From Antedon mediterranea (taxonomy: Eukaryota; Animalia; Echinodermata): a DNA stretch of 64,000 nt. The notes beneath the pieces are model-generated. The model saw only the letters and a program-made list of their open reading frames with translations. It did not search any database and had not been told where the DNA came from. Position 1 is the first letter of the stretch, and every line of letters begins with the position of its first letter. The stretch lies in contig NC_092680.1 in NCBI RefSeq assembly GCF_964355755.1, forward strand, positions 310,001-374,000. Direction: 5' to 3'. Position numbers and translations under genes: made by a program. This document shows, piece after piece, positions 39,296-64,000 of this stretch.

Positions 39296-42200
39296 TTACA
39301 TTTGGTTATTGCCGGCGCTGGCACCACTGAACATTCCAGAAGCCATACCACTTGCAGCTCCTTTAGCTGCTTCCTTGGTTGCGGTTTGAACGCCTGGGTT
39401 GGTCACGACACCTCGGGCGAACTCTTCTTGTGCTTTCTGGAAACTTGCACCGGTACTTCGGTACAAGGAGTGTACCTGTGAATGGTCATTGAAAGAAATG
39501 TTATCAAAATATACTTTATTATTTCACAAAAAATATGATACTAAAAATTTGGTTCATACATTTTTTTTCTGTTTTTTTGCTCATTTTAAAATATAAATAT
39601 TTTTCTGTTAAAAAATGTTTTGTTCATGAGAATACTGCAACAATTTAAGGTAAATTTATTAAAATATCTATTTATCTTTTGCTTACATGCATTAATAGAG
39701 AATACTATTAAATGCACAATGAATTGATACAGTTTATCAATATTAATATACAGTGATATGAATGGTATGTTTTGGTGTTTTGTTATTGGATGAAAATTAA
39801 ACATGATTATAAAAGAAAATATGCAAATAAATTATTATTATAAGATTATTGTAAGCAAATATATGTTATTCAATTATTTAAATAATTGTATATAAAATAA
39901 AATATTGATAATTATATATTACATAATATGTATATATAATGTATTATTATACATTACATAATGTTATTTATAATGTATTATTTAAAATTGTAATTCAACA
40001 GATTATAAACAAAAAAGTAAAATTATTTTAAACATTTTGTTAAATTAAGTTAGAAAATAATGAGTTAAGAAATAAGCTTGTTTTTTGCAAAGCTTTTTAT
40101 CCAAAATATTGAATTAAATTTAAAATTCCACCACCATAAGAAAATTTAAGAAAACAAATCAACATACACATACAAACAAATCAGCACGTTCATAAGTTAT
40201 TTACCCGGGTTGACTTCATGAACGAATCATCGCTAACTTTGCTGGGTAGATCAGCAACTTACCCGGGTAGATCAGCAACTTACCCGGGTAGATCAGCAAC
40301 TTACTCGGGTAGATCACCAACTTACCCGGGTAGATCAGCAACTTACCCGGGTAGATCAGCAACTTACCCAGGTAGATCAGCAACTTACCCGGGTAGATCT
40401 CCAACTTACCCGGGTAGATCTCCAACTTACCCGGGTAGATCTCCAACTTACCCGGGTAGATCATTAACTTACCCGGGTAGATAACCAACTTACCTGGGTA
40501 GATAACCAACTTACCTGGGTAGATCACAGAATTACCTAGGTAGATCTCCAACTTACCCGGGTAGATCTCCAACTTACCCGGGTAGATCACCAACTTACCC
40601 GGGTAAATAACTAAGCATGAACGTGCCCATAGTACAGAGCACACATTATTTACAATACACAATCTGTAATTACACTGTATAAACACACATACAAATTACA
40701 AATACTATCACTACAGATCTCAGACACTAAACTGTTCTTACATTAAATACTCACTTCGTTCAATTTAAAAAAAAATCTAATAACAAGCAATTGCATTTTT
40801 ATTGCGATATTATTTTTATATTTTCCTAATTATTCATTTATTTATGAATTTTGTGGCAGAAGAAAATTATATTATATTTTGAATTTTAAATTGATTTATT
40901 TTGTTGTTATTTTTATTTATTATTTAATCAATCAATTTATTAAAAATTCGCATTAATTTGAATTCATTTAAATACAAACTTGTATCAATATTTATTTTTG
41001 TTGAAATGTTTAAGTTTAATTTCAAATTTTAAATAAGAGAATTAACTATATATCATCTGTATATACCAATTTGTTTTAGGATATTTAACTAGTTGTTGGA
41101 GACTTTCACTTTACCAATGCAATCTTTTGGTCATTTCCATACCTTTTTTAGAAATAATAGATTTAATGTAGCTAGTACAGTGAACAGGATTGCAACTATC
41201 ATCATGATTAAACCAGTGGATATGCGTTGAGCGTTGGACATGTCACCATCGGTGAACACTTCAATGGACACGATCCAACCGCTAATGACATTATACAGTG
41301 ACAGTACACACAATGAGTAGAAGATGAAGGGATGGAGGTAGTGAATATATGAAAAGAAAGCAGTAACATTAATAAAAGCAAAACGAAACAAAAAAGTGTT
41401 ACTAAAATGTTGTCATGATAACATATGATTTTTCTTGCTTTAAAAGCTCTTTTAAACTAAAATGTTTGACAAAACTAATAAATGTTATTTTATGTTATAT
41501 ACAGTTAACTCTTTTGTCCACCATATACAGCAGATTCTATAAGATGATGCTAAACTGAATATTATAAATTTTGGGAAAACGTGGAACGTTTTACAATTTT
41601 TTAAGTAGTTTATATCAGCTTCTGCTTTTACAGATTTTTTCGAGAGAAAGTGTTTAAGGTGATGTCATGAATAATATTGCCACACTACTACTTTTAAAAT
41701 TTAAAAAATTAGATGTTACCATGATCAACACTACTATAATACCTTTGTGCAATATTAAGCAAACTAAAAGAACTATATACAACTGTTAGAAGTTGTTAAA
41801 TAACATATTATTGGGACTGGGTTGCGTTTATACCTTCTTGATGAATAAAAGATTTAATGTAGCCAATGCGCTGAACAGTATAGCGACTGTCATCATGATA
41901 AAACCAACTGACAGACGTGAGCCTTTGCTAGATTCACTGTCCGTTAAAACTTTGATTGTTACTATCCAGCCACTAATATACATGATAAAAATTGTAAAAA
42001 AAAAACATTAAATATATTGGGTGTTTTAATTTTAAATTAAAAAAACAAACAAACAATAATGTATAGAAAAATTCATTTGATTTTGTTATCATGATGACCA
42101 AACCTGAAAATATGAAACGTAAATATTTTGGAACATAGCGTTTCATACGTATACTTGAGCTTGTTAACATCTATTAAAGTAAAGGTTCTCAAGTAATAGC

Positions 42201-45200
42201 CGATATAGAGACATAACGCTGTAAACATGGCGGCACAACAGATTGTTTTGCTTCTAATCAAATTCATCTTTCATTAAATAACAGACAATTTATGAATGAA
42301 AGTTAACAAATTTCTGAAATATAGTCAACTTGTCAAAAAAATTAATTAACAAAGCAAAAAAAAAATTTATTTGGTTTCTGTAAATCCCATTATATTCAGT
42401 TGGCAATGTATTTAAGCTAGGCTAAAAAAATGCAAGTTTAAACAACAAGATACAGTACAACAAAGTTTAGAAAAAACCATTGTACTTTTATTTACCCGTG
42501 TCTTAAATTATTATCATTTGACCTTAATACTAAGTTTTTTAAATAAATATTTTTAAGCATTAGTAGGTCCTTTCCTTTGCTGCTTAATTTTACTAACTGT
42601 AATATGTCATAACTGGATTTATAACTGCAGTTATGACAATTTTATAACATAATTGCCTTTAATATGCGTTGTTAAAGAGCAGCACGCACGCAAAACCTGA
42701 TTAATATTTTTCAGATGATTTCAAAATTAGTAAACATTCACCTACATGTAAAGTAATTTTTATTTTATTTTTTTATTAGCAAAAGAAAATAAGAGTGTTT
42801 TATTAAATACCTTCCTAATATAAAATAGTTTTAATATGGATAATGCAGTGAATAAAATGGCTACACACATCATCCACAAACCAACAAACGTTTGTCCACC
42901 TGATGAACTATTTGTCAACACATTCAGAGCTACAAACCAGCCACTGTCAAAGTTCAAAAACATTTTTTTAATAAAAATAACAAAATACTAAATTAATATA
43001 AAACTAAATGGAGGAATGACATTTGTAAAACCTAATTAAATCATTATTATTATTATTCTACTTCTTGAGGGCATGGTTCATAGATTATACAATTTATGGA
43101 GAGGGGTAGTCAATGCATTTTCTACTTTTTGAGTTATATCTCGCTCTCTGAGAGAGGCTACTGTTGGTTTATCCAGGTAAGCTAGACACAAAATAGTCAA
43201 TATTATTGGTTGAAAGATCATCACATGACCAAGTGTAGATTTATTAATTTCAAAGTTGGGCGCGTTGGACTAAATAGTGAATTTAGACTAGAATAGGAAA
43301 AGTATATTTATATAATAACAGTTCATCTAGTGATAAGAAAATGACCGATAAAAAATGAAAGCCAAAAAAATAAATAAATTATGGTAATACAGTTAAAGTC
43401 CAGAAAAATAAAAGATGATTGAAGTCAGCAAACTTCACTATGTTAACCTATATTTTCTTTGTGTAATTGTCTTATTTATGTATTGTCCTGTCATTGTCAT
43501 GTTTATATTGTCATTGTTCGTTTTATATGTATAAGTTTATTGCCTTAAAAACGCATTTTGAATTTTTCTCTCAATTTTTTGCATTATTTTATCTATTTAT
43601 CTCACCTTATATTCTTATGCAATTTGGAAATATATTGAAATGAACTATTTGGTATGTACACAGTTAAATTATATGAAACTCTGTGCTAGACGATGATTTA
43701 TTTTGACCTATAGATGATTTATTTTGTAAGAGGATTTATAAAAAAAATGTACTGAACATTAACGGATCGAATGAATGTTTAATACTCGCAGAAAATGCTT
43801 TATGAAATGTGTATGTTCAATTGTAAAAAGGAAAAAAATGAATATTTTATGGTGACTTAACAAAGGGCAACATCGACAGATAATGGTATGCATGGTTGCA
43901 CAATTAGAAGAAAATGCTTGTGTATATGTTGATAATTAGCTGGTGTTTGCTGTATTTGGAACAAAAGCTGACACTATGATGATAAACACTGATGGTTTAT
44001 TAAGATGACTTAGATCACCTTTTTGAGATACATAGCATCCAGTGTAGCCAGCAAGGACCAAACACCACCCATAAATAACATCAAACCGCCAACAACTTTT
44101 GCTCCAACACCGTCTTCTTTTACTACACGAATACCATTGATAAACCCGCTGCCAGAGTTAGAATATTGTATCAAAATATATTTGCATGATTCAATAAACA
44201 TAAAGGTAAAAGCACTATTGAGCGTTCAATAGTGCGTACTATTGCAAGCCATGTGACCAACAATAATCTAATTAAATGTCAGGAATTTATATAGGTGTTA
44301 TATAAAAGGTAATGTTGTATAAAAATATAAAAGATATTTGCATGATTCAAGATAACACCATCAATGCGATAAACTACTTGTTTTTTACCAGAACCAGTGT
44401 CACTGAGACTTAATTAAGTCTCTGGTGAAATTCATAAGAGATTTTGTAGGTACTAAATAATAATTGTTTGACACAAGAAAATGATGATACTGTAGGACCA
44501 ACAATTTGAAATGTTTGACAATAAAAAAAATAAATATAAAAAGGTCTAAATATTTGAGAGAAAATAATCAATGAAAAAATCAGAAATTTAGTAAGAATAC
44601 TTATGAGGAGCTACTGTGTGGAAAAAATGTAGTAAAATATATTTGACTCTGTAATAAAGTAAAAATATTAGGATACTTTAAATGCATAAGATATTTCAAA
44701 TACATATACCGTATTTATTTGAATAAACCCCCCGGGTTTCATTGGCTATTTGAAGGGGGAGTTTATTGCAAACGATGTTCTATGAAGGGCATTTTTTCGA
44801 GGAAAGTGTTTTTTTCAAATAAATACAGTATATAAACATTAACATTAACAACATGAAATAAAGATGTCATCACATATTTTATCAACAAACTAGACATTGC
44901 TGAATGAAATGTATCAATGTTGATATGGAACAACGCTGTGAATTCTCTGGAGTTGTATCAAAGAACTTATAACACAAGAATCTCCTGTTCTTCAATTTGC
45001 ATTCAAAACACAGTATCGGAAGTACAGGGTTAAAAGGTCAAACTGGGCGACGCCATTTCACAGCATGGAGCAGCGCCCCCTCCAAACTAGGAAGTTAATT
45101 ACTCTACCCCCCTAGAGTATTAGCAGATCCCCTCTATGATTTTGACTTTCTAATTTGATGCGGGCGCCCTACTCCTCAGTCAATTACTCTATCCCCCCTA

Positions 45201-48200
45201 GAGCATTAGCAGATCCCCTCTATGATTTTGACTTTCTAATTTGATGCGGGCGCCCTACTCCATGGCTCACAATGGCGGCACCCATAGCTCTATTCTATCC
45301 CACAATGCCTTTCGAAATTGTTACGCGCTTCGGACGAACAGGAGATTCTTGTGTTATAAGTTCTTTGGTTGTATGTAGATATTGCTTTATAATATTTAAA
45401 TAGTAAGCCTGTTGATTGGTCAAATATAAGCAATAAATAAACAAATCACTAAAACTTGTCATAAAATGATTTGACACATTACTATGTATCAGAAGTAAAA
45501 TGAGATACGTACCACGTGCCCCAACCATCTAATCCAATGGCCTGTACAACATTAGCACAAAATTGGCAGAAAAATACAAAGAAAAACATAAAGAAATTGA
45601 ACGAACTGTCACTCCTATAGAAAAAAAAAGACAAAATAAACATTAGAAATAAAAACCAACCATTAATAATAAATATATTAATATTAATAATACATACATA
45701 TATTACATTAATTAAATATTTTTCTATAACTTATCAAACTAGCATGAAACTTCTATCCAACTAAATTTAAAGTAAATATTTTTAAAAGTTGAAAGCATGG
45801 TAATTTGTTTTTTTTTAAATGTTCTTAGGCTAAATGTGGTAAAATTATGTAGAAATTTAAGTCTAATTCCGATTTTAAAACATGAATAAGTTTTCTCTAC
45901 ATTGGAATTAAAGTCTTAATATTGATTAAGATTCAAGTAATTGTATTGGTACACTTTAAAATGGAAATTCGGTCTGCTTTGCATAATTAAGACAATAAAA
46001 CAACAAAGAAAAATACATCAAATTGCAAAAGGCAAAGTTCATTTGTTGAACTTATGTCCTTTTTTAAGTTTAAAAAAAATATAATTTGTATAGCGCCTTT
46101 CCAAATTGATCAAGGTGCTTCACATTCTAATGCATAGGAAACAAGCAAGTTTTAAGGCCTTTCTTAAATAGATCTATCGATTTTAGTTCCCTTAATTCTA
46201 TTGACAGAGGGTTCCAGAAACTTGCTCTAAATTTGGAGAAAGCAATGTCCCCTGAGACACGCCTTTCAAGGTGGTCCTCTAACCTGGTTGGATCATTTTC
46301 CGACCTGAGACCACGCCTCCCACAATTATAGAGGTTAATCCTAAAGATAACCTGGTGCTCGGTTCAATTATTAAATCCAATAACACCGCCAACTTTTTTC
46401 TTTTTATTTTCTTAAGAAGATCATATGCATTTCAAAGTATAGTATTTTGATTCACTAATTTATGATGCAAGCTAATTTTAATCTTAAATTTTTAAAAGTA
46501 TTATTTTTATTTTATGAGAAAAATATTAATTTGGATGAAAATGATGAAATGATGCTTTACCTGAAGGCCTTGTACATAGGTCGATACCAACAAACGAATG
46601 AGCATGGACTGAACGCTACAAACCAGACTATTGCAAGACCAAATGTTGTCGCTTTACCTCCATCTGTTTTTGAAAATAGGTACGCCATGGCGCCGATCAA
46701 ATTCAAGAATAGGACTAATACATAAACTGAAATGAAATTCACGATATGAAATGCATTTAAAAATGGTATTATAAGCAAATGTGAATGGTATCACAATTAT
46801 GACGCGAAAAACTATGATAAAAAATGGTAGATGGCTTGATGAAGAAAGAAACAAACCATGACGTGTCGCTGCCTGCTCACCTAAAAGCTTTATACAAAGG
46901 CCTAAACCAACACACATAAGAACATGGATTAAAAAGTACACAGAAAAATACAGCCAGGCCAAAACATCGTCCACTATGACTGACTCCTGTACTGATGTAA
47001 CCAATAGATATCAGCACATTTATAAATAACAACACACCATAACCTGAAAGACGTCAATCATTTTATAATATACATACTTTATTTATTTATTAAGGTGAAA
47101 TCTACAAATTTTTCCCAACAGCCAGGTGCGGATCCAAGTGGAGCCCAGTCGGCCAGAGCCCCCCTAAATTTCACAAATTGTAATGCAAAGATAGGAAATC
47201 AAGCTCAGCCCTTCATTTCACCATTTTAGGCCCTGGGCCCCTCCTATTTCAAAATTCTGGATCCACCACTGACAGCAGAAATGAATCCTGCTAGAGAAGA
47301 GCAATACTAGAAATTCTAAAAATTAAATTAGTACCTGATTCAGAACGGCAGCACAAACAAACAATGAAAACAATGGCAAACGTGTTTGGGCTTTCTTTCA
47401 ATTAAATTTGCTAGACTGGATAGCTACCTAATAATTATTCATGAGGCTTTTTAATTTGCTTGTGGAATTCCTAAACACGTTCAAGTATAGGCTGTTTTCT
47501 AAACATGTTTTTGCCGTTGGGAATAATTTGTAGATCATGTCTAAATGAGAAAATGTTAAAGAATTTATTTACGTACCATTAGTGGCTAATTATTATTATA
47601 ACACACCTGATCACATGATATTCAATAAATATTCTATTGAACTCTAAATTACGTCAGAGTGCAATGTAACTACTTATATGTGACTACTGCAATTTTGTTT
47701 TGTGCATTCATTTTTGATATACCACATATGCAACATAAGGTTGGTGTTGACTGTAGTAGTGTTGTCGATGATATCGGAGGCCTGTATTTTCGAATAAGTA
47801 AATATATAATTCACGCAATTCATGAAATTATTTGTACCATTGCACTCATAAACATTTATTATTATGAGCTAGACCATATTGAATGTTTTAAACATTAAAT
47901 GTAACTTACACATCCACAAATAATATCCAGTTTTCACTGTACGCTGAAAGTCCAAAGGAATGTCTACTGAAAAATCTTGATAAAAGCAAGGCTGGATGTG
48001 TAACCATGACGGCAAAGGAGGCCAGTTGTTTTGTCGTGCTAAAAAATAAAGTATTTAATTAAGTATTATTATGAATGAAGGATGAGGTCTACAAGGAGTC
48101 AAAGAAAGATGTTCCTCCTCAATAACAACTCTTTTAAAGTAGTTGATTCTTTCATGTACACAAATGTTTAGAGATAAGGCAAAGATTTATTAATATCAAG

Positions 48201-51200
48201 AAATAATGCATAACAGGCCAGATGAGCAATGTGTGTCCAGTGGCAATATTCAACATTCAAGCGAAACATTTCTCCTAAATAAAAACGTATAAATAAACCT
48301 TGAATAATACAAAAAGAGATTTAGACTCAAACGTAAAACTAATACCATAAGATTAGCAGAGAATGTTAAATTCTCCTATCACGCTAAATGAGACTGTATA
48401 GTTTTAATGGTTCTAACTTACTATTATATTGAGCATTATTAATTTGTTGTTCTCTTCTTTGTAGTTCGGCTGCTTTGCGTTCTAATTCTTCTTGTCGTCG
48501 TATTAAGTCTTCATGTCCAGCTTGCACTGCCTATACAGTAGGGCAAACAAATAAAACACAAATTACATGGGTCAGACCAGGTCATATTTAGTGGGATGCC
48601 AAAGGTAAATAAAACACAAATTACATGGGTGAGACCAGGTCATACTTAGTGGGATGCCAAAGGTAAATAATCTATTCCTTTTTGTCCTATTCTTTACATG
48701 TACATTCTCAGCCAGGGAATGTGTATTAAGCTCTGCCTACACTATCAAACTAGTTTGACAAAAAAGTGTGATGTGCCCAAATATAGTAGTGATATGATAT
48801 CATCATGTCATATATGGGTACATCACATTTTGTTGTCACATAAATTTTGACTGTAAACAAAGCTTTACATTACAGATATTATTTGACACGCAAGAAATTA
48901 GAGTGAACAATATAGAAGCAACTTACTGGTTGTGCAGCTGATTGTGTGTAAGCAGGTGGTGGTCCTGTGGGTGGTAACACTGCAGGTTGGGGTTCAGACT
49001 TTGTAGGAGGTGCTGTCTGTCTATATGGTTGCTGTACATTAAAAAACAAAAAAGGAAAGTAAATCATTTAAATTATCTCATCATCTTATATTGTAGCTAG
49101 GGAAGTCAATGAAACATGCTTAAGCACAATGAAACATGCTTAAGCACAATGAAACATGCTTAAGCACAATGAAACATGCTTAAGCACAATGACTTCAATG
49201 GAAGGGCAACCTGCCTCCTTTGCTATGTAAATTATCTTTACTTTACTAATTTGCTGATTCACGAAGCAATCAAGACACAATTATTAAATAAACACATTGG
49301 TTTTCTTGAATCGTAACATTTCTTTAAAGATATGGATTCTTATGTCTTATACTGTACAGTAGGATAAATTTAACAAATGACCTCTCCTTTTAAATCTTAT
49401 TAAATGTAGATTACAAATATTAATACACAAATATTTTTTTATATGTTTTTTTTGGCTTTATTTGTGACGCAGAGCCTTATGTGTAGTGTTGTGAAGTCAA
49501 AAACAAAAATGCATAGGGTTTTAGCATTTGTACAATATAAGGAATACAAAATTATATACAGTACTGTACAGTATTTTTTAATTTTTTTTATTTTATTTTG
49601 ATATTTTGTATATGTTTTTCATATTTTTCTAATAATAATAATAATAATATGTGCACATACAGATTGTTTATTTGAATCTTCAAAAGGGTTATATTCTTCA
49701 AGACCTCTATGGCTGTTACTAGTTGCTTGTTGAACTGACTGATCCTGCAAGACAAATATAATCAGCAAGTTTAAAAATAATGCTTCCTGTTTCCTTACAC
49801 AAGTGTAGTGTACATTATGTTGAAGAGGATCCAGGAATTATGAATGAAGGATGTGGTAAAAACAATATATTTGTGCGAGAGGCACCACCTTCCCCAACCC
49901 CTGCTGGATCCGTTCCTGTGGATTGATGTTCATCTAGACCACCATGCTTATTTGTGCGAGGGGCACCACCTTCCCCAACCTTTGCTGGATCCGTTCCTGT
50001 TGATTGATGTTCATCTAGACCAGCATGCTTATTTGTGCAGTACACAGTACATAGCATTTTTTTACTTTTTATTCATGTATACAAAAAATTAATTTAAATA
50101 CAATGTATATTTGGCATCTGAAAAAACTGTAAATTGCACTTTAAACTGTAAAGACGACAGACTGACTGTAATGCATAGATACAGGATAAGAAACATTATA
50201 TACATCTGCATCAGATATGATTCAGAGTGCTTAAATTGTAAGGGTTATCCGTCGCCGTTATTACGTTGCTGACGACGGATGAAAGCTGTTCATCGGCTTT
50301 TATCAAACCTCTTGGGATGTAAACATAATGAAGATAGTTTGCCGGAAAATGAATTAGCTACTTTTTTACAAATGTCATGCTAGTATTATATTTTAACACA
50401 TTGAGGCATGTTAAACATAACTGTATACAATTATTGTGTAAATACTGTACTGTGTACTACAGTACAGTTGGATTAGAAGATGTTGTGACATCTTTAGTGC
50501 ATAGGAAAATCTACCCAATGAGTTCAATAAAACAAGAACCAAAAAGCTCACAAATTTTGTATAATAAATCGTAAAAAAAATTTTAAATTTTGATTTTTTT
50601 ATTCTTTCTTTAGCCTCTCTGGATTATTAAGTGTTTCTTCAAATAAGCATGCGTTTATATTATATATATTGATAAGAAAGCACATACCATTGAACAGCCA
50701 GTACAGTGAAATCCACAATTAGAATGCTATAAGCCTTTTAGATAATACTTAACAGATACATATGCAACACACGGTCCTGCATCTATACTATTAAAAGTGT
50801 CACTAATGTAAAGAACGAATCCTGAATCATTGACGCTTTTCCAAAATACTGTTTAGCCTAATAATCTCATTGGCTTTTAATTCTGAACTTTACCTCCTAT
50901 TTGATTAACTCCCACACCATATGGCTGTTGTATGGCTATGATAACAGCCGGAAAACCTATTCAATTTTGTAACAGAAAAACAAATACTTCATGTGTATAG
51001 TAAACATATAGCATCAAGTTATCACCCAAAAGTTTGATTTTGAGTTAATATGAGTGTGACTGTTTTTTGTATTGGTTTGGTGATAGAGGAGCACTTGTGA
51101 GTCCATGGAGACTTTACAACTAAGGTATGAGTAAATATCAAATTGCAATATTCCATTGTGAATGATGGGTACATGTACTCATAGAATGCCATAGTGAACA

Positions 51201-54200
51201 TTATCTGTGGTTATTAGAAATTATATGTTCATTAAATACAGTTGTAGCTAGTAGGTACAATTATATTTTATTATTTCATTTAGCAAACAATTTGCAAAGT
51301 TTTTAAAAGTCAAATAGTTTTAGTTTCTTTACCTCAATCAACAATTTTCAGTTGTTGTCTAACAACTTAGTCTGTTTGGTCAAAGCAGCATGACTAGAGA
51401 ACAACTTCCAAATGTTCATGCTTTATTTTGCCCAATCTGGTCTTATTGACAATTGTTCTGAAGGGTCTCATTTCTGATCTTGTATCCTACTTAAATCTGT
51501 TGTTCAATACATGCCTATACTGTACATAAATAGTCAGCTTTCGGGACAGTAAGTAAGCGAAAGGTGCTTTATACAAAAAGATTAAACTGTGCATGCGTAT
51601 AAGTCCATACTCCGTTCCGTTCATTATTGCGACTGTATTTGGTCAATTTAACATTCGTCGTTCCGTGGTCTAGGCCTACAGTAGATATACCATCGTCGCT
51701 TGTGCAAAACGCATTTAATAACATGACAAAAAACACTTTATACAAGTGTCATGCTCTGCTCTACTGTCCCGATGCGAAAGCTGACTATTTACTTCTTGGT
51801 TTTTTTGGGTACATGTCTGCTATTTATTTTTATTTTTCTTTCTCTACATTTTATATACTGTATATATATATTGCAGGCATTAATAACTAAAAGATAAACA
51901 TTGGTTGCAGATAATAGGTAATCCCATAATTACCATTGTCTGCTGGACCACAAATACAAACATATTTACTACAGTAAACACTCAATCCTTCTTTAGCTTG
52001 CACAAAGCAATGAATCTAAATATGAGAAATTGCACAGCTTGCATGCCACCTACTAATAATCAATGTTGCTTTGAATAGACAATTGGACTTGAATATACAG
52101 GTACGATTCAGCCATAAATTAATGTTCATAAACAATGGCAATATTTATCATATTAAAAAAGTCTACAATTTTCAGTATTGTACAACATATAAAACTGTAA
52201 GTTTATAAATAATACAAATAGTGAGATGACTACGTACAATACTAGCATTTAATGACATTTTATGTTATATCCATGGTGGCCTTTACAATACTAGCATTTA
52301 ATGACATTTTATGTTATATCCATGGTGGCCTTTACAAATGGCCATCCAACATAGAACACACACTACACAAGAACTACACTTAACAGATACATTTAGATGT
52401 AGTAAGTATATGCTAATAAATTAGATTTCTTGTAAGAAGATATTAAATAAACCAGATCTGAATAAACGCAAAGTATGTTTAATGTTTTTCTATAATAATA
52501 CGTTTTATTAACTGTAGGTCATTGTACAGAGTTGAATTCAAAAACAGCTGAAAAATGCATACTTTACCTGTACTACAAAAATAATTATGTAATAAAATCA
52601 ATAAAAATTCATAATTTTTACCTTTTCTGGATTAAAATCCATTTTTGTTTATTAAATGATAATGAAAATACCAGTAAAATGTAGGCTTAGGATCAAAGCA
52701 GAGTCTATTACATAGCCGTACAGTGTAGTCAGTAATAATTATTGATATTGTTATTATCGCAGTAGATAGAAGTCACATGGTAATATGCAAATTACTGTCA
52801 TGTGACATTCAACCTTCATCAGTTGTCACAGAATTTTAAATATTGAAAAAACTGCATTATTTTATTATAATTTAATATTTATTATTTATTAAAAGTATTT
52901 AAAAATTGTATTATAATCATTACAGAGTATAAATAACCAGTTTTATGCAAAATAATAATCAATATTGTTGTTAATTAGTTATGAGTAGTAGAGCAACGTT
53001 TTGTATTGTGTAAGTTTGTAACCTACCAGTATAATGTAAAAAAATGGAAATTAAATTTCATTATGATGCACAGCCGGTGTAAATACAGTACAAGCAAATA
53101 ATACCCAGTAACACAAAACCAGTGCATACAATGTAAAGAAGAGCATAGCTAACAACCAACTATTACACAATTCAGATAATAATATACTGATTGACTGGGT
53201 GTAAAGAAGAGCATAGCTAACAACCAACTATTACACAATTCAGTTAATAATATACTGATTGACTGGGTGTAAAGAAGAGCATAGCTAACAACCAACTATT
53301 ACACAATTCAGTTAATAATATACTGATTGGGTGTACAGTTGTTGTATATATATTTTCTTATTTTACTGTTTAAATAATGAACATGTTTAATACAGAAAGA
53401 ATTCTTGACTTTGCTAACAGTAGTGGTGGCGTGTCGTCATCACAGAATGGACAATACGAGAAGTTAAACCAAAATGGTGGTGATGAGGAGCCAATCAACA
53501 AGTCGCCAACAAGGATGCAATGGCTACAAACAAAGGTTGGAAACATCTCAACTAAAGTAAGGAATGTACCATCGAGAATTGATGCTATCATGCACAAGGT
53601 AATTGATTTCATCATCTAAATCATTATGGCAATTTAGTACCATATATCCTCGGGTACAATCCCACTTCGGGTTTAATCCTACCTCCTACTTTATGTCTGA
53701 TTTCCCAAACAGGCATATCCCGGGTATAATCCCAGTATTGTTTTTGGTCTGGATGTAGCCACTTCAGATAAGTTTTTCTTATAATTTTTTCCTGAACCAG
53801 GGTTTCCCCGGGCATAGTAAGTCCCACACCCCAAAGTCGGCCCAATTTTGGGTGATGAGATTATATCAGAGGATATACACGGTATTTAATAATCTAACTT
53901 TGTGTAATAGGCTTTACTTAACTGTACAGTAGGCCTATCCTGTAGTACAGATTATATTCTGACAGGCTAACATCAGCGGCATAATGGCTATAAGCGCTCA
54001 CTGGCTAAACACAGGGGCCAAGACAATGAGTGGCCCTAACTTTGGAGGGCTCCTTAGAAGTGCTAAACACAGGGCCTCTTTTGTACCAGCAATTCCTTGA
54101 TCTAGGCAAAATTGTCTAGCGCCTAACTGTGACGGTATAATTTAAATTACAGTAGGACAATCCTTGTTACTGATCTATATATATAAATTTATGTAAGGTA

Positions 54201-57200: not shown

Positions 57201-59307
57201 TGCAACTTCTGCTTTATTCAATTAAATCATTCATTTACTTCCTGGTAATAGTTTTATCTAACTAAAATAATCACTGTCTAATTCAATGAATAACCACCTA
57301 AAAGTGTAGGAGGTGGTTAGAAACTACATGAGATTTTAACTTTAAAATTGGATTTTATTTTACCCTCAGCTAGCAGAACACATTAACTCCTTCCTTATTA
57401 ATATTATACACACTCATAATAAAGACTACCAGAGGAATACGCTAAAGGCAAATTTACACAGACGAGTGGTAACGGTATCCATAGCTAGTCCCACGTACAA
57501 TCTGTATCTGTCCTGAGCAAAACCACCCGTCCGCTTCATGTTGTGTGTAAATGGTCATAACATAGATTCTATATTTTTACTATTGTTACGGCTCGTATGT
57601 GTAAATTGGTCATTCTTCATTATACTATCAATTACATACTCAGAAATGATATTTCATCCAAACATCTTACTGTTACAGAAAGAAAATACTGCAAATTTTC
57701 CTACAAGCTTTTCTAGTTGCTCGAGTAGTTCCAAATTACAGCCAATGCAAAGCGTTGGTGATGACAACACCACATGGAAAATCACCTCCGTCCAATAGTA
57801 AACAAGTAACTACTGTACAGTACCTGCCTCAACCCAAATGTTTTAAATTATTTTTTCCGTTATCAAATCTGGCTTATTAAGTATTTTATTAAAGGCAGTT
57901 TATACAGTATTTTTGTTCTATAAACTGCATTATTTTATTTGGTTTTGCGTTAACCTCATGCGAAGAGAGAAGATCAGCTACTGTATTATTTTATTTGGTT
58001 TTGCGTTAACCTCATGCGAAGAGAGAAGATCAGCTACTGTATTATTTTATTTGGTTTTGCGTTAACCTCATGCGAAGAGAGAAGATCAGCTACTGTATTA
58101 TTTTATTTGGTTTTGCGTTAACCTCATGCGAAGAGAAAAGATCAGCTACTGTATTATTTTATTTGGTTTTGCGTTAACCTCATGCGAAGAGAAAAGATCA
58201 GCTACTGTATTATTTTATTTGGTTTTGCGTTAACCTCATGCGAAGAGAAAAGATCAGCTACTGTATTATTTTATTTGGTTTTGCGTTAACCTCATGCGAA
58301 GAGAAAAGATCAGCTACTGTATTATTTTATTTGGTTTTGCGTTAACCTCATGCGAAGAGAAAAGATCAGCTACTGTATTATTATTTCCACCGAAAATATC
58401 TGTGTTTACCATTATTTTTAAAGGGAAATTGATATTATAATGTTAACATTATACCATTGAGGTACTTTAAAACAAATTTTTTTGTCGTCAACAGCTGGTA
58501 CAAATGCACAAAATGGACACATATCGAAGAATGATATCACTACAGTAGCTTAAATTCTTATTGTTAGATGTTAACAAATCAGTTAAATGCTAAAAAAGGT
58601 TTTATAAAAGGATACTTACGAAAGATATTAATGAGAAAAAAACACAATAGCACACTGTTTTAAATACATTTTTTATTTTTTCAGATTTACAATTTTTAAC
58701 ATTTAGAAAAAAATATTGATGACAGAAATAACCAGTCCTGGGCATACATATGTACACATTATTCAATAAAATAATTTTAATACATAACAGAACATAATAT
58801 ATTATTTATATTCTATGCAGCATGCAATTCAAAACATTAAACAATCATTCAAAAGGGTTTCGAGGAGCCACTAACTGACTAAAGAGAGCTAAACCGATTA
58901 TGCAATATTGGTAATCAAACTAATTTTTAAGTTGAGAAACATAGTTTTGTATTGTATTTTTTGCTACACAATTTTCAAAATGTGTAGCAATAAGGTTGTT
59001 TTGTATAGCTCTTTTCTATGCTACACTGGTGAAAATGTTCCCTGACTGAACTGTCATAAACAATCGTAATACAGTAACCACTGTTTATCAATCAGGATGC
59101 CGTTCATCACAGAAACACGTATGTGAGTGAGTGGGTAGGCATGCCTGCGAACCTAACCTAGCTAGCTAGCTACACACAGACTCAGTCAGTACATACAGTA
59201 GGCCTAGGAAATTGGCATGATTAAACCATCAAATAAAACCAATACTTTACCTGAAACGGATTAGATTCTTGTGGGTCAGCAAATGGATTACTATCAAAGT
59301 CAGCCAT
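39296..59307 (-). CDS. SCAMP1: Secretory carrier-associated membrane protein (SCAMP1-like, NPF-containing); exons 59307-59251, 49744-49661, 49031-48927, 48530-48422, 48038-47910, [47043-46881 or 46726-46561], 45614-45513, [44148-44019 or 42943-42811 or 41972-41834 or 41281-41143], 39475-39296
   Basis: [96 protein letters not shown]; all junctions GT/AG and phase-consistent. Confidence 0.95.
40235..40606. repeat. 21-bp satellite, about 18 copies, palindromic TACCCGGGTA core
   Basis: Unit aacttacccgggtagatcagc; explains ORFs 40216..40686 and 40218..40484. Confidence 0.95.
41143..41281 (-). CDS. SCAMP1: SCAMP alternative exon 8d (139 nt): [46 protein letters not shown]
   Basis: Acceptor cattag, donor AAG/gtatgg, phase 2 to 0, open frame. 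Confidence 0.88.
41834..41972 (-). CDS. SCAMP1: SCAMP alternative exon 8c (139 nt): [46 protein letters not shown]
   Basis: Acceptor tattag, donor AAG/gtataa, phase 2 to 0; absent from the supplied ORF track. Confidence 0.87.
42811..42943 (-). CDS. SCAMP1: SCAMP alternative exon 8b (133 nt): [44 protein letters not shown]
   Basis: Acceptor ttgacag, donor AAG/gtattt, phase 2 to 0. Confidence 0.87.
44019..44148 (-). CDS. SCAMP1: SCAMP alternative exon 8a (130 nt): [43 protein letters not shown]
   Basis: Acceptor ctggcag, donor AAG/gtgatc, phase 2 to 0. Confidence 0.87.
44707..44830. mobile_element. Tc1/mariner (pogo-like) MITE
   Basis: taccgtatttatttgaa / ttcaaataaatacagta with TA ends; relatives near 6450-6573 and 8560-8640. 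Confidence 0.7.
44959..45367. mobile_element. 409-bp non-autonomous TIR element, P/Galileo-like
   Basis: Perfect 32-bp TIR caaagaacttataacacaagaatctcctgttc; exact 7-bp TSD GTTGTAT; CA..TG ends; internal tandem duplication. Confidence 0.85.
46083..46345 (-). mobile_element. L2/CR1-type LINE 3' end fragment
   Basis: Minus frame [35 protein letters not shown] followed by an aggcgctatacaaat tail. Confidence 0.75.
46561..46726 (-). CDS. SCAMP1: SCAMP alternative exon 6b (166 nt): [55 protein letters not shown]
   Basis: Acceptor catttcag, donor AG/gtaaag, phase 1 to 2. Confidence 0.92.
46881..47043 (-). CDS. SCAMP1: SCAMP alternative exon 6a (163 nt): [54 protein letters not shown]
   Basis: Acceptor tctttcag, donor AG/gtgagc, phase 1 to 2; the supplied ORF track shows the wrong frame. 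Confidence 0.9.
47123..47271. mobile_element. hAT-like MITE with 5-bp TSD
   Basis: TIR caggtgcggatcca / tggatccaccactg; ACAGC on both flanks. Confidence 0.75.
49107..49192. repeat. 20-bp repeat x4
   Basis: Unit caatgaaacatgcttaagca. Confidence 0.9.
49868..50039. repeat. ~81-bp direct duplication containing a MITE-like end
   Basis: tatttgtgcgag..ctggatccgttcctg..catgc occurs twice. Confidence 0.8.
53132..53330. repeat. 68-bp tandem repeat x3
   Basis: Unit begins tgtaaagaagagcatagctaacaacc. Confidence 0.92.
53396..53598 (+). CDS. Candidate plus-strand exon antisense within SCAMP intron 1, possibly an upstream AP3B exon
   Basis: Acceptor tttaatacag, donor AAG/gtaatt, open coding-like frame ..[43 protein letters not shown]; in frame with the AP3B acceptor at 59778. 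Confidence 0.5.
53638..53884. mobile_element. pogo/Tigger-like MITE
   Basis: taccatatatcctcgggtacaatc / gattatatcagaggatatacacggta. Confidence 0.65.
54469..56184. mobile_element. 1.7-kb non-autonomous TIR element with 5-bp TSD (hAT-like)
   Basis: Perfect 15-bp TIR ctacgctcgcgctaa / ttagcgcgagcgtag; CTACC on both flanks; subterminal ttcgccaa..tggcgaa palindromes; CpG-rich interior. Confidence 0.82.
56650..56912. repeat. 80-bp tandem repeat x3
   Basis: acagtacaataacaaggag at 56671, 56751, 56831. Confidence 0.9.
57924..58382. repeat. 56-bp minisatellite x8
   Basis: Unit actgtattattttatttggttttgcgttaacctcatgcgaagag(a/g)aagatcagct. Confidence 0.95.
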
Positions 59308-59789: not shown

Positions 59790-62700
59790 ATGACGTCCAG
59801 TAGTAGTATGGTGTCTTACGCCAACGAACGTCCACATCACTTGGTGGGCGGTAACAGTAGTGGCGGTGGTGGTGGTGGAGGTTCGACAGGTGATGCGGAT
59901 GAGGCTAGCGATCCAGCTCGTGGAGGCTTCTTTGCAGCAGATTATAAAAAGTATAATAATATCACCATGATCGATTGTATTTTGTTACCTTGGATATTTA
60001 ATTTTATGTTGATTAATTTTCATAATTTATATTAATAATACTAAACTAAATAATTAATATTTTGTTATTAATAAATAAAAGATCAGTCAGAATAAAGAAT
60101 GAGAACGCATCATTAATTATTCATCATGTTTCGTCCCAATTTAGGCCAATAACAAATTCTTGTTTATGGGGTTGGGTGCGTGGGTTGGGATGCATTGTCA
60201 TAATAGGAAATGTAAAGCCATCAGCAACCACCTCAAACTTGATATGTATATGTGTAATTAACCGTAAAAATAAGGCATTAGAGACGCATGATAATGATTG
60301 CAATATTTATTTTTTTTAGCCAGTTTTTTTTTTCTATAAAAAGATCTCAATTAATATCAAATTTAGTAATTCTATTTTATTGTAAGATGTTTTCTTATAT
60401 CACATATTTTTTGTTTTTGTTCAGTAATGTTGGTTTTGGACCAATAAAACAAAATAAATAACAATATTATGTTTTTCTAATTGTTAGTTTAATTGTTATT
60501 TTTAGACATGAAGATCTTAAGTCAATGCTTGATAGTAACAAAGATGGGTTAAAGCTGGAAGCAATGAAACGTATCATTGGAGTAAGTACTAACAAAACGT
60601 TAGTTATACTGCATGTTTGCTTTCATCATTCCTCATATTATTTTTTTATTGAGTAATAATAATTAATTTGAACATACTTTTGTAACAGTGGCACACTTCG
60701 ATATGAAGGTTCATTGTACAATCAAAACCACATTACAATGCTAACTATAAAATGTACAACAATAATAATAAAAATGTAATAATAATAATGAAAACCAAAC
60801 AGTACCCCCCCCCCCCCCGATATTTATCGATATTTACCCACCCCCTCCCTCCCAGTATTGTTTGAGATAGAGTGGTCAATTAGGTCAAAAGTCATGTATG
60901 AATGGCTTTACACTCTACCAGCTATTCAAGTATCAACTTATTCCACCATATCAAAATAATAATATAATAATGTATAATAACAAAGGTTGGTGAGGGTGAC
61001 CATCACTACTACTGTAGGATTTTATCAGAAAATATTGAGCCATTTTTATTACATAATAATATTGTTTAAAGGTTTGCATAGTGAATAAACACTATCAATG
61101 AAGTATAAGAAATAGTTAAATTGTATTCTTTACATTAAAATAACAAATTGACAAGTCCTTTTCAAATGATACAGACACTCAGCATTGTGTCATCAGTATT
61201 GTATGCTAAAACACCCTAACTCTATCAGTGTGAACAGGGCTTTAATGCTATTATACTAATTGAATAGTAGGGCCTTTACCCTTAAGCTAGAAGATTATGT
61301 GACAAAAAAGTGTGATGTGCCCATATGGTAGTGATGTGCCCAAGTTTGTTTAGTGATATGACACTATCATGTCCATATATGGGCATATAATCTTTTTGTC
61401 AAATGATCTTGATAGTGTAGACAGAGCTTAATACCAATTGAAGAGTATATTGTTAGATATAATCAATATCTTTCAGATAATGTACAGAGCTATTCAATTA
61501 CATGGTTGATTGAATCTGTGCAGATGTAGGTTTACATACACTGAGTTGCACTGTGAATAGAATTAAAACTACTTTGATTTAATTTATAATAATACTGTAT
61601 TGGATTGTTCCACAGTGTAATAGTAGCAGTAACCTCATTAGCATAAACTGCCAGGTTAATTAGCATAATCCATAGCTTTAATTTAACACTAAACTTGCTT
61701 TTTGCCTTTAATTATAATGATAACATTAATCTATATTATTTTTTGCACTGAAGCTCTGCAATATTTTGTGACTGTTTTATTTGTCATTTTGATTTAGCTT
61801 TTTGCTTATTTTATTTGTATTTTCATTGAGATCCAGCCACTGATATATTAACATTAAATCATAACATCAATTGTTGGGTTTTTTTCAGATGATTGCTAAA
61901 GGCAAAGATGCATCTGATTTATTCGCTGCAGTTGTAAAAAATGTTGTCTCTAAAAATATTGAGGTAAAAGTAACCATAATAATAAATTTGTGTTTTTCAT
62001 ACTGTAAAGGCAAAAATGTTCGCACCTCCGTCATTTTCCTTATGCGTATGTAGAATGTAAAAATAATTTGATCTTTATTTAATCTTTTTTCAGATTAAAA
62101 AGTTGGTTTATGTTTATCTTGTACGTTATGCTGAAGAACAGCAGGACCTTGCTCTGCTATCAATTAGTACATTCCAAAAAGCACTCAAGGTAATTCGATC
62201 ATTTTTCTACCAAATATAAAGTTAAAACCTCCTGATAAGCATGTTTTCTTGTGACAATTATCCTTAGCAATAGGTCTAAAATAGAATAATAATGAAAATT
62301 AATGTAAGTGAGAAAATAACCTGCAATTGCTCACAGGTGTGGACGACAATCAGGATAATAACTATAAAATTTTAGGCGCTATCGTGCGGACAAACAAAGA
62401 AAGTACTTGTTTGTAATATTAATTGCTATCCACAATACAATACATTATGATTTGAAATTACCAAAATCATACAGAAACTAAATAATTATAACTGTATACT
62501 TTCTGTGTATATACAGGATCCAAACCAGTTTATTCGAGCATCAGCTCTACGAGTTTTGTCTTCGATTCGAGTAACCATCATCATTCCAATCATGATGCTT
62601 GCGTTAAAAGACAGCGTGACAGACATGTCGCCATATGTGAGAAAGACGGCCGCGCATGCCATCCCGAAAATGTACAGCCTGGATCCAGAACAAAGAGATC

Positions 62701-63689
62701 AACTCATAGAAGTTATTGAAAAACTACTCTCAGATAAAACAACAGTAAGCATTTTTTCTTAATTTTTTATTTACTATACAAATAAATAATACTAAACTTG
62801 ATCTGCATATATATTTCAAGAACTCATTTATTTTTGTAGTGATTATGTTTTATTTTAAAAAAATATATAATGTTGATATGTATAATCAAATAAATACCCC
62901 CTAGAACAAATATAAAACAATTAATATCAAGAAGTTCAATTTTTGGAATTAATGAGGATCGTAGTGTTAAATCAATTAATCATAAATATTTCACCTCTCT
63001 GACACAATTGTTTACTTTTATCAGTTGGTAGCTGGAAGTGTTGTGATGGCTTTTGAAGAGGTTTGTCCTGAAAGAATCGACCTAGTTCACAAGAATTTTC
63101 GCAAACTCTGCAATTTGTTGATCGATGTGGAAGAGTGGGGACAGATTTCAATCATCAATATGTTGACACGTTATGCCCGCACCCAATTTCTAGATCCAAA
63201 CAAAGCTGTAAGTATGGGTTTTTTTTATTAATAATTAGTAAACACATTTTTTAGCTAATTTTCTTTTTTATGATGAAAATTTTTTTTTTTTTTTTTATTA
63301 AACAAATTTGTACAAATATCATAGTAGTTTTGCAGAAAGATGAAATAAGCAAGTTACCTCACTACTGAGCTACCATGTCACTACTACATGTTTGATCCAA
63401 AACATGACTGGGGTAATAATGTGCAGCGCATTGAGAGCTTGGTTATATACGCTATATAAGAATGGACTATTATTATTATTATTAGTAATACATTTTTCCT
63501 AACTCCAACCTCTTTAAGGATTACATTCAAGAAGAAAATGAAAAATCATTTTATGGATCTGAAGATGATGAAAAAAAGGAGGATGAAGGCGAAGAAGAAG
63601 GAGAAAAGAAAATACCATATGTAATGGATGCTGATCATAGACTGTTGCTAAGGAGTGCCAAGCCATTGCTACAAAGCAGAAACTCAGCT
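59790..63689 (+). CDS. AP3B: AP-3 complex subunit beta, 5' part; exons 59790-59950, 60506-60581, 61889-61963, 62094-62189, 62517-62744, 63025-63207, 63519-63689; continues beyond the window
   Basis: [107 protein letters not shown]; phases consistent. Confidence 0.96.
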
Positions 63690-64000
63690 GTAAGTTATTA
63701 GGGAGCGTTACTTTGCACCAACCGCCGACCATCCCCTGCCTAGGTAAGGTCAATCGGCCAATTGTCAAATGAGACTGCCCAAAATGGCCGCTTTTTCCTG
63801 ATCAAATTTTGTGCAACCCTTCCATTTTATGTTTTTGATACACCAATGAATAACTGCCAAGTTTTAGAATGTTATCACAATTTTCCTCAAATAAGCATCT
63901 TGACAGGCCTACTTCTTTTGTATAATAAACAAGATGACTATTACGGTTAGCTCAGGTTAGCTCAGTCGACTGCTTTTATCCCATAAGGACAGTGATATCA

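Follow-up and report, generated by a model that had tools for sequence, protein, structure and literature searches.

SCAMPs are vesicle-trafficking proteins described as having four transmembrane helices (TM1 to TM4), cytoplasmic termini, and an E peptide between TM2 and TM3, and published work suggests that this cytoplasmic E peptide is their functional part (PMC8721997). That topology would put the link between TM3 and TM4 on the lumenal side. Tandem clusters of mutually exclusive exons are a well-known, ordinary mechanism. Here we describe such a cluster in a SCAMP gene of the crinoid Antedon mediterranea, located in a 64,000-nucleotide stretch of contig NC_092680.1 (positions 310,001 to 374,000, forward strand; hereafter the window), where exons 1 to 9 of the gene occupy positions 59307-39296 on the minus strand. 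The RefSeq Antedon SCAMP1-like models represent the same gene as isoforms X1 to X4 (XP_071965285-288); they use 8b, 8c, or 8d each singly, carry neither exon 8a nor exon 6a, and make no statement on mutual exclusivity or history. We consider it highly probable, taking the explanation as a whole, that exon 8 of the crinoid gene stands fourfold in tandem, that one copy is likely included per mRNA, and that each copy is predicted to supply a lumenal helix, loop, and TM4 of its own.

Four tandem copies of exon 8

Assignment of the gene is direct: exon 6b is 100% identical to the RefSeq SCAMP1-like protein of A. mediterranea, identity that extends to the protein encoded by the gene, and the whole protein carries the SCAMP domain PF04144. 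Between exons 7 and 9 lie four segments, 8a to 8d (Table 1), that are tandem copies of exon 8. All four lengths equal 1 modulo 3, and each copy has an AG acceptor and a GT donor. Exon 7 ends in TG at position 45513, and each copy supplies the rest of the split Cys codon, starts G(F/W), ends (L/I)(K/R)K before GT, and enters exon 9 (start 39475) in phase 0. The segments are thus homologous neighbors of the same phase and similar length with canonical splice sites, as in other tandem exon clusters. A profile built from 104 non-crinoid exon-8 variants matched all four within the 8.4-kb interval from exon 5 to exon 9 (E 9e-13 to 5e-9), the only other match listed having E 0.34, and no further copies of exon 6, 7, or 8 were found in that span. 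Three of the four (8b, 8c, and 8d) also matched positions 125-164 of PF04144, below its curated cut-off; 8a alone gave no Pfam SCAMP match.

Identity over 34 anchored columns was highest between 8c and 8d (26), followed by 8b-8c (19), 8b-8d (18), 8a-8c (14), 8a-8d (13), and 8a-8b (9). Synonymous divergence (dS) was 1.75 for 8c-8d and 1.71 for 8b-8c, with nonsynonymous divergence (dN) of 0.24 and 0.30, and across all pairs the proportions of synonymous and nonsynonymous differences were 0.67 to 0.78 and 0.21 to 0.48. Since dN is far below a nearly saturated dS, the reading frames have been maintained throughout, which supports selection on each copy. A blastn search revealed no same-strand similarity between the different introns flanking the copies. 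A first-pass annotation of the window, made from the sequence alone, had listed the shared exon ends, the equal length and closeness of 8c and 8d, the dissimilar flanking introns, and selection on each copy, and in these respects its description holds. That the array reflects misassembly, or that its members are neutral pseudo-exons, is very improbable; nothing was found in favor of either, and overlapping contigs of two DNA-like runs from one sample cover 40591-44258 with 0 differences, the copies differ at ~70% of synonymous sites, and three of them occur in RefSeq isoforms.

We examined what the swap would change using an AlphaFold model of the 8d isoform (102 aligned sequences; mean predicted local distance difference test score [pLDDT], 79.6). 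The model contains long helices at residues 147-178, 186-218, 221-243, and 267-304 and a short helix at 253-260, with helix pLDDT mostly >90. Exon 8 covers residues 252-297 (pLDDT 95-98), a segment that takes in the short helix, the loop after it, and the last of the long helices, so that each copy is predicted to encode a lumenal helix, a loop, and TM4. With four modeled membrane helices and an E peptide between TM2 and TM3, the protein shares the SCAMP plan, its helices being predicted to insert into the membrane. No solved relative was found among PDB sequences at E up to 1 or by Foldseek at E up to 0.001.

The first-pass annotation had emphasized loops of differing chemistry, from acidic to neutral, and an NSS sequon in 8b. 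The chemistry is roughly as it claimed, with net loop charges that differ little (0, 0, 0, and -1), but the swap goes beyond the loops, the whole of TM4 being exchanged as well. The sequon is present, 8 residues ahead of the hydrophobic core of TM4. Glycosylation needs ~14 residues between sequon and membrane segment (PMC3613178); we therefore rejected glycosylation of 8b as unlikely, the site being probably too near TM4 to be modified.

Frame logic and splice sites of the cluster

All six double inclusions of exon-8 copies shift the frame, and the stop that they run into precedes the last junction by 97-118 nt. The triple and the quadruple inclusion tried stop early as well, and the form that skips exon 8 stops in the last exon, making both joint inclusion and skipping unproductive, as in other mutually exclusive clusters. 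Two models without the exon-8 segment, from sea urchin and hemichordate (alignment labels P0129 and P0147), match the predicted frameshifted skip form. Each of the four RefSeq isoforms, which are gene models, holds exactly one copy (8d in X1 and X4, 8c in X2, and 8b in X3), with a membrane domain that is otherwise identical. Together, the gene models and the frame logic suggest that one exon-8 copy is likely used per mRNA, in agreement with the mutually exclusive array proposed by the first-pass annotation.

That annotation had recognized a single array. The exon-8 array is real, but a second tandem cluster was overlooked: exons 6a and 6b lie 154 nt apart, and both encode a CW motif. All eight combinations of one exon 6 with one exon 8 remain open, so that the pair and the four exon-8 copies could yield 8 possible membrane cores. 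A tree test of the history of exon 6 gave an approximately unbiased test P value (p-AU) of 0.17. Exon 8a, which is intact, and the alternative exon 6a are unannotated; 8b to 8d are already known from automatic annotation.

How the choice among copies is made may be approached through the splice sites. The exon-8 donors match GTAAGT at 3 to 4 of 6 positions, as expected of regulated weak sites, compared with 5 to 6 for exons 2, 3, 4, 5, and 7; the donors of exons 1, 6a, and 6b match at 4. All 15 sense-strand G|GTAAGT words in the 19.8-kb intron-exon span scanned fall within a 21-bp tandem repeat in intron 8d-9 (Table 1). In steric-exclusion pairs of the alpha-tropomyosin type, the donor of one copy and the branch point that follows are no more than about 50 nt apart. 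The introns here measure 1075 nt (8a-8b), 838 nt (8b-8c), and 552 nt (8c-8d), too long for simple steric exclusion, and we rejected this mechanism, distant branch points being unmapped. Incompatibility of U2 and U12 sites was rejected as well, all donors being GT without the U12 consensus.

The length of these introns leaves room for competing RNA pairings as in Dscam, in which one docking site would pair with a selector beside each copy, a common mechanism in large invertebrate exon clusters. We searched 150-nt flanks for such pairings, and none of the four coarse scans exceeded its shuffles: the best shared pairings reached -11.7 to -14.1 kcal/mol (worst partner), against -11.7 to -16.8 kcal/mol in 6 shuffles each. 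The scan was coarse and no orthologous intron was available for covariation, yet its outcome makes exclusivity by docking-site pairing a rather doubtful explanation. A 22-nt direct repeat (44350-44329 and 44194-44173, minus strand) and a hairpin are located just upstream of the 8a acceptor.

In the preferred account of one copy per mRNA, the weak exon-8 donors would instead be rivals for the acceptor of exon 9, with tissue-specific splicing factors deciding among them, and nonsense-mediated decay would remove double inclusions. The cytoplasmic NPF motifs and tail would stay constant while the packing face of TM4 and the lumenal surface vary, which may tune partner or cargo binding and sorting. 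Several observations count against this account. The RefSeq isoforms are automatic predicted models; exon 6a occurs in none of the four Antedon isoforms, and exon 8a in none of these and neither of the two from the crinoid Anneissia; and the pairing scans yielded no sign of cis-acting pairing. Contigs were weighed neither way: in run X1 (contigs of one study), a contig of depth 124.6 stops at 39477, the point before exon 9 at which the ends of exon 8 and the intron diverge; another, over 8c, stops 39 letters from 41869, as would fit a branch at the 8c donor; and a contig of depth 10.8 crosses 8a unspliced. No exon junction appeared among the 15 of 317 rows listed of the contig table, rows that are filled with repeats.

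The absence of 8a from annotated crinoid isoforms raises the alternative that only 8b to 8d are live and that 8a, left over from an old second exon type, is silent and was retired recently. In line with this, its donor belongs to the weakest class (3 of 6) and it has no Pfam match of its own. Yet 8a keeps its frame and both splice sites despite synonymous saturation relative to the other copies, and its profile score is close to that of 8d (34.5 versus 35.8 bits). The two differences found in 8a in a second data set were both synonymous, a weak point, and exons of its type are annotated as isoforms in urchins, starfish, sea cucumber, and amphioxus. On balance we regard a retired 8a as unlikely, and 8a is probably used too.

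History of the non-W and GW exons

We asked whether the same segment is swapped in other animals. From 412 fetched proteins, 180 were aligned, comprising named invertebrates, 9 named vertebrates, and 5 more sequences labeled vertebrate-like; species labels were assigned by hand, one amphioxus label being deduced from truncated names. A swap was scored when two proteins showed no difference in exon 5 or over the first part of exon 9 and differed in the exon-8 segment. By this measure, exon 8 is swapped at the same boundaries in 27 of the 43 species with several proteins, across six phyla: 7 echinoderms (Antedon included), 2 hemichordates, 2 amphioxus, 13 molluscs (Mya being counted through a read-through model), 2 nemerteans, and 1 brachiopod. 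Most of these species have two variants, with three in Lineus and in the Mya read-through model; four copies were seen in Antedon only, unannotated copies in other genomes being unsearched. No swap was seen in the other 16 species, including all three arthropods, with isoform sampling that is partial; for crustaceans this covers one barnacle species with two proteins. No named cnidarian was among the 120 matches listed for a tardigrade query protein.

In most pairs, one variant starts GW and the other G followed by F, I, L, or V (hereafter non-W); both hemichordate variants are GW, and both sea cucumber variants are non-W. All 14 vertebrate-like sequences examined are of the GW type, and the switch is not known from vertebrates. 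Neighboring exons are swapped too: exon 6 in 9 of 43 species (echinoderms and amphioxus, the latter with three variants) and exon 7, encoding TM3 and single copy in Antedon, in 8 of 43 (hemichordates and oysters). The oyster and hemichordate exon-7 swaps (P0055/P0108, P0149/P0150, and P0021/P0162) are probably independent duplications.

In Antedon, the copies fall into these two types. Exon 8a is closest to an exon of the brittle star Amphiura (18 of 34 columns, compared with 7 to 12 for 8b to 8d), and its top five matches, from Amphiura and sea urchins, are all of the non-W type. The best match of 8b to 8d is the Anneissia GW exon, with which they form a clade at 98/96 in a 31-row tree. On these comparisons, 8b to 8d are a crinoid expansion of the GW type, and 8a is the second type common to echinoderms. 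The graded divergence described in the first-pass annotation stands insofar as 8b is intermediate and 8a most distinct by identity; it is no simple age ladder, 8a being of the second type.

The age of the split was assessed with quartets and trained scores, in both of which residue 2 and the loop were masked. Quartets grouped copies by type in 12/12 cases between crinoid and other echinoderms (not independent of each other), 4/4 between amphioxus and echinoderms, 5/6 between crinoid and hemichordates, and 15/15 within molluscs; among other echinoderms, 2/6 did so. A score trained on protostomes gave 8.7 for 8a, 3.9 for 8b, 2.6 for 8c, and 0.8 for 8d and was higher for the non-W copy in all eight other deuterostome pairs (for sea cucumber and hemichordates, the longer copy), while the reverse training placed the non-W copy higher in 9/9 protostome species. 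Only 1 of 512 label flips reached the observed margin of the protostome-trained score, a figure with a phylum-level floor of 1/8, since molluscs make up 6 of the 9 species used in training. Altogether, these results suggest that the split between 8a and 8b to 8d likely predates crinoids. Pulling the other way, quartets grouped by type in 1/3 cases between crinoid and amphioxus and 0/8 between echinoderms and hemichordates, and a single Antedon clade was not rejected (p-AU 0.10-0.16; 34-column trees).

Beyond echinoderms, the alternative is that several phyla each duplicated exon 8 on their own, the two types being parallel outcomes and the array still a real mutually exclusive cluster. Of 133 between-phylum quartets, 95 paired copies within species, 31 grouped by type, and 7 crossed types; shared packing neighbors would by themselves make copies of the same species alike, and by-type quartets exceed crossed ones. 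A 54-row tree required 4 changes of type and a protostome-only clade was not rejected (p-AU 0.37; 31-row tree), against which the 31-row tree, with residue 2 included, split the types by one change (51/80). The smaller tree omits hemichordates, sea cucumber, octopus, vertebrates, ecdysozoans, annelids, Lytechinus variegatus, Patiria, Asterias, and one oyster. The gene is prone to exon duplication, as the exon-6 and exon-7 swaps attest, and the arthropods with several proteins showed no exon-8 swap; on the other side, the trained scores separate the types in both directions, with 8a above 8b to 8d, and the read-through models of Nucella and Mya carry the non-W copy first, the same order as in Antedon. 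We give independent duplication somewhat less than an even chance; with trees this weak, a single origin in bilaterians is a possibility roughly on a par with repeated duplication.

Under the history that we propose, an old duplication would have left a GW exon behind a non-W exon (8a), at a depth that would be at least pan-echinoderm, probably deuterostome, and perhaps bilaterian. The GW exon would then have tripled in crinoids, giving 8b and later 8c and 8d. A more ambitious version, which as a joint claim we put slightly on the doubtful side of even, holds that the choice between non-W and GW TM4 goes back, as a single splice switch, to the ancestor of bilaterians, that it was kept in at least six phyla and is undescribed in print, and that it would provide two cell-type-specific SCAMP classes with different membrane packing faces; invertebrates would have elaborated one gene combinatorially (exons 6, 7, and 8), and vertebrates would have kept GW alone and duplicated genes.

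Gene context and known systems

The remaining exons are listed in Table 1. Exons 5, 6a, 6b, and 7 pass the curated cut-off of PF04144. N-terminal NPF repeats are a feature of long SCAMPs, and the Antedon gene has three such motifs in exons 1 and 2. The alternative first exon, conserved in Anneissia, would drop two of the three.

Table 1. Exons of the Antedon SCAMP gene and an adjacent repeat (window positions)
Feature	Position	Strand	Remarks
Exon 1, start codon, two NPF motifs	59251..59307	-	Matches RefSeq X1-X3
Alternative first coding exon of 7 codons, lacking NPF	52622..52642	-	Used by RefSeq X4; Anneissia X1 starts likewise
Exon 2, third NPF	49661..49744	-	
Exon 3, proline-rich	48927..49031	-	
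Exon 4, cytoplasmic helix	48422..48530	-	
Exon 5, SCAMP domain begins	47910..48038	-	
Exon 6a, alternative TM1-loop-TM2-E peptide	46881..47043	-	PF04144 E 1.7e-11; in 0/4 RefSeq isoforms
Exon 6b	46561..46726	-	In 4/4 RefSeq isoforms
Exon 7, TM3, single copy, ends in split Cys codon	45513..45614	-	
Exon 8a, non-W type	44019..44148	-	130 nt; frame intact; in 0/4 RefSeq isoforms
Exon 8b, GW type, NSS sequon	42811..42943	-	133 nt; RefSeq X3
Exon 8c, GW type	41834..41972	-	139 nt; RefSeq X2
Exon 8d, GW type	41143..41281	-	139 nt; RefSeq X1 and X4
21-bp tandem repeat, 17 copies, intron 8d-9	40244..40605	.	Possible decoy donors just 3' of cluster
Exon 9, last coding exon with stop	39296..39475	-	

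A gene with an adaptin N-terminal domain (PF01602; about 59790-64000, plus strand) lies head to head with the SCAMP gene, ~500 bp from its start; it resembles AP3B1, the human neighbor of SCAMP1. Intron 7-8a contains a high-copy element resembling a miniature inverted-repeat transposable element (45370-44970); it is bounded by terminal inverted repeats, and 86 bp of its interior are duplicated. Downstream are a multi-C2HC zinc-finger gene (PF13913; 30781-34779, plus strand) and a sodium/calcium exchanger exon (PF01699; 18869-17895, minus strand).

We found no description of mutually exclusive SCAMP exons in the titles and abstracts listed, most subscription journals and the supplements of exon-cluster surveys other than PMC5703972 lying outside the search, and the Antedon array belongs to a widespread splice switch that is apparently undescribed. 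Long-kept versions of TM4 and the lumenal loop would amount to a natural experiment indicating that this side of SCAMP matters, and isoform pairs are ready-made for tests in sea urchin, amphioxus, and oyster. If one bilaterian origin is true, the pair would rank among the oldest mutually exclusive exons retained and would set splicing cleanly against gene duplication.

One Dscam cluster swaps a transmembrane segment. As in Dscam1 (PMC1397879), several tandem clusters in one gene could produce combinatorial isoforms here, but Dscam1 reaches 38,016 isoforms, compared with 8 possible SCAMP cores, and the SCAMP gene showed neither a docking site nor evidence of a recognition code. FGFR IIIb/IIIc is similar in being a long-kept tandem exon duplication that swaps part of a membrane protein and is found in amphioxus; it differs in affecting an extracellular Ig half-domain, in being chordate-specific, and in its regulation by Esrp, whereas the SCAMP swap affects a membrane helix and reaches protostomes (PMC5703972 for FGFR). 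The supplements of that paper include one Esrp-dependent human SCAMP5 exon, which is not this cluster, and the available portion of its main text does not mention SCAMP. Mammalian SCAMP1-5 share the four TM helices, cytoplasmic termini, and E peptide of the Antedon protein, but there diversity comes from five genes (PMC8721997), whereas in Antedon it comes from copies of exons.

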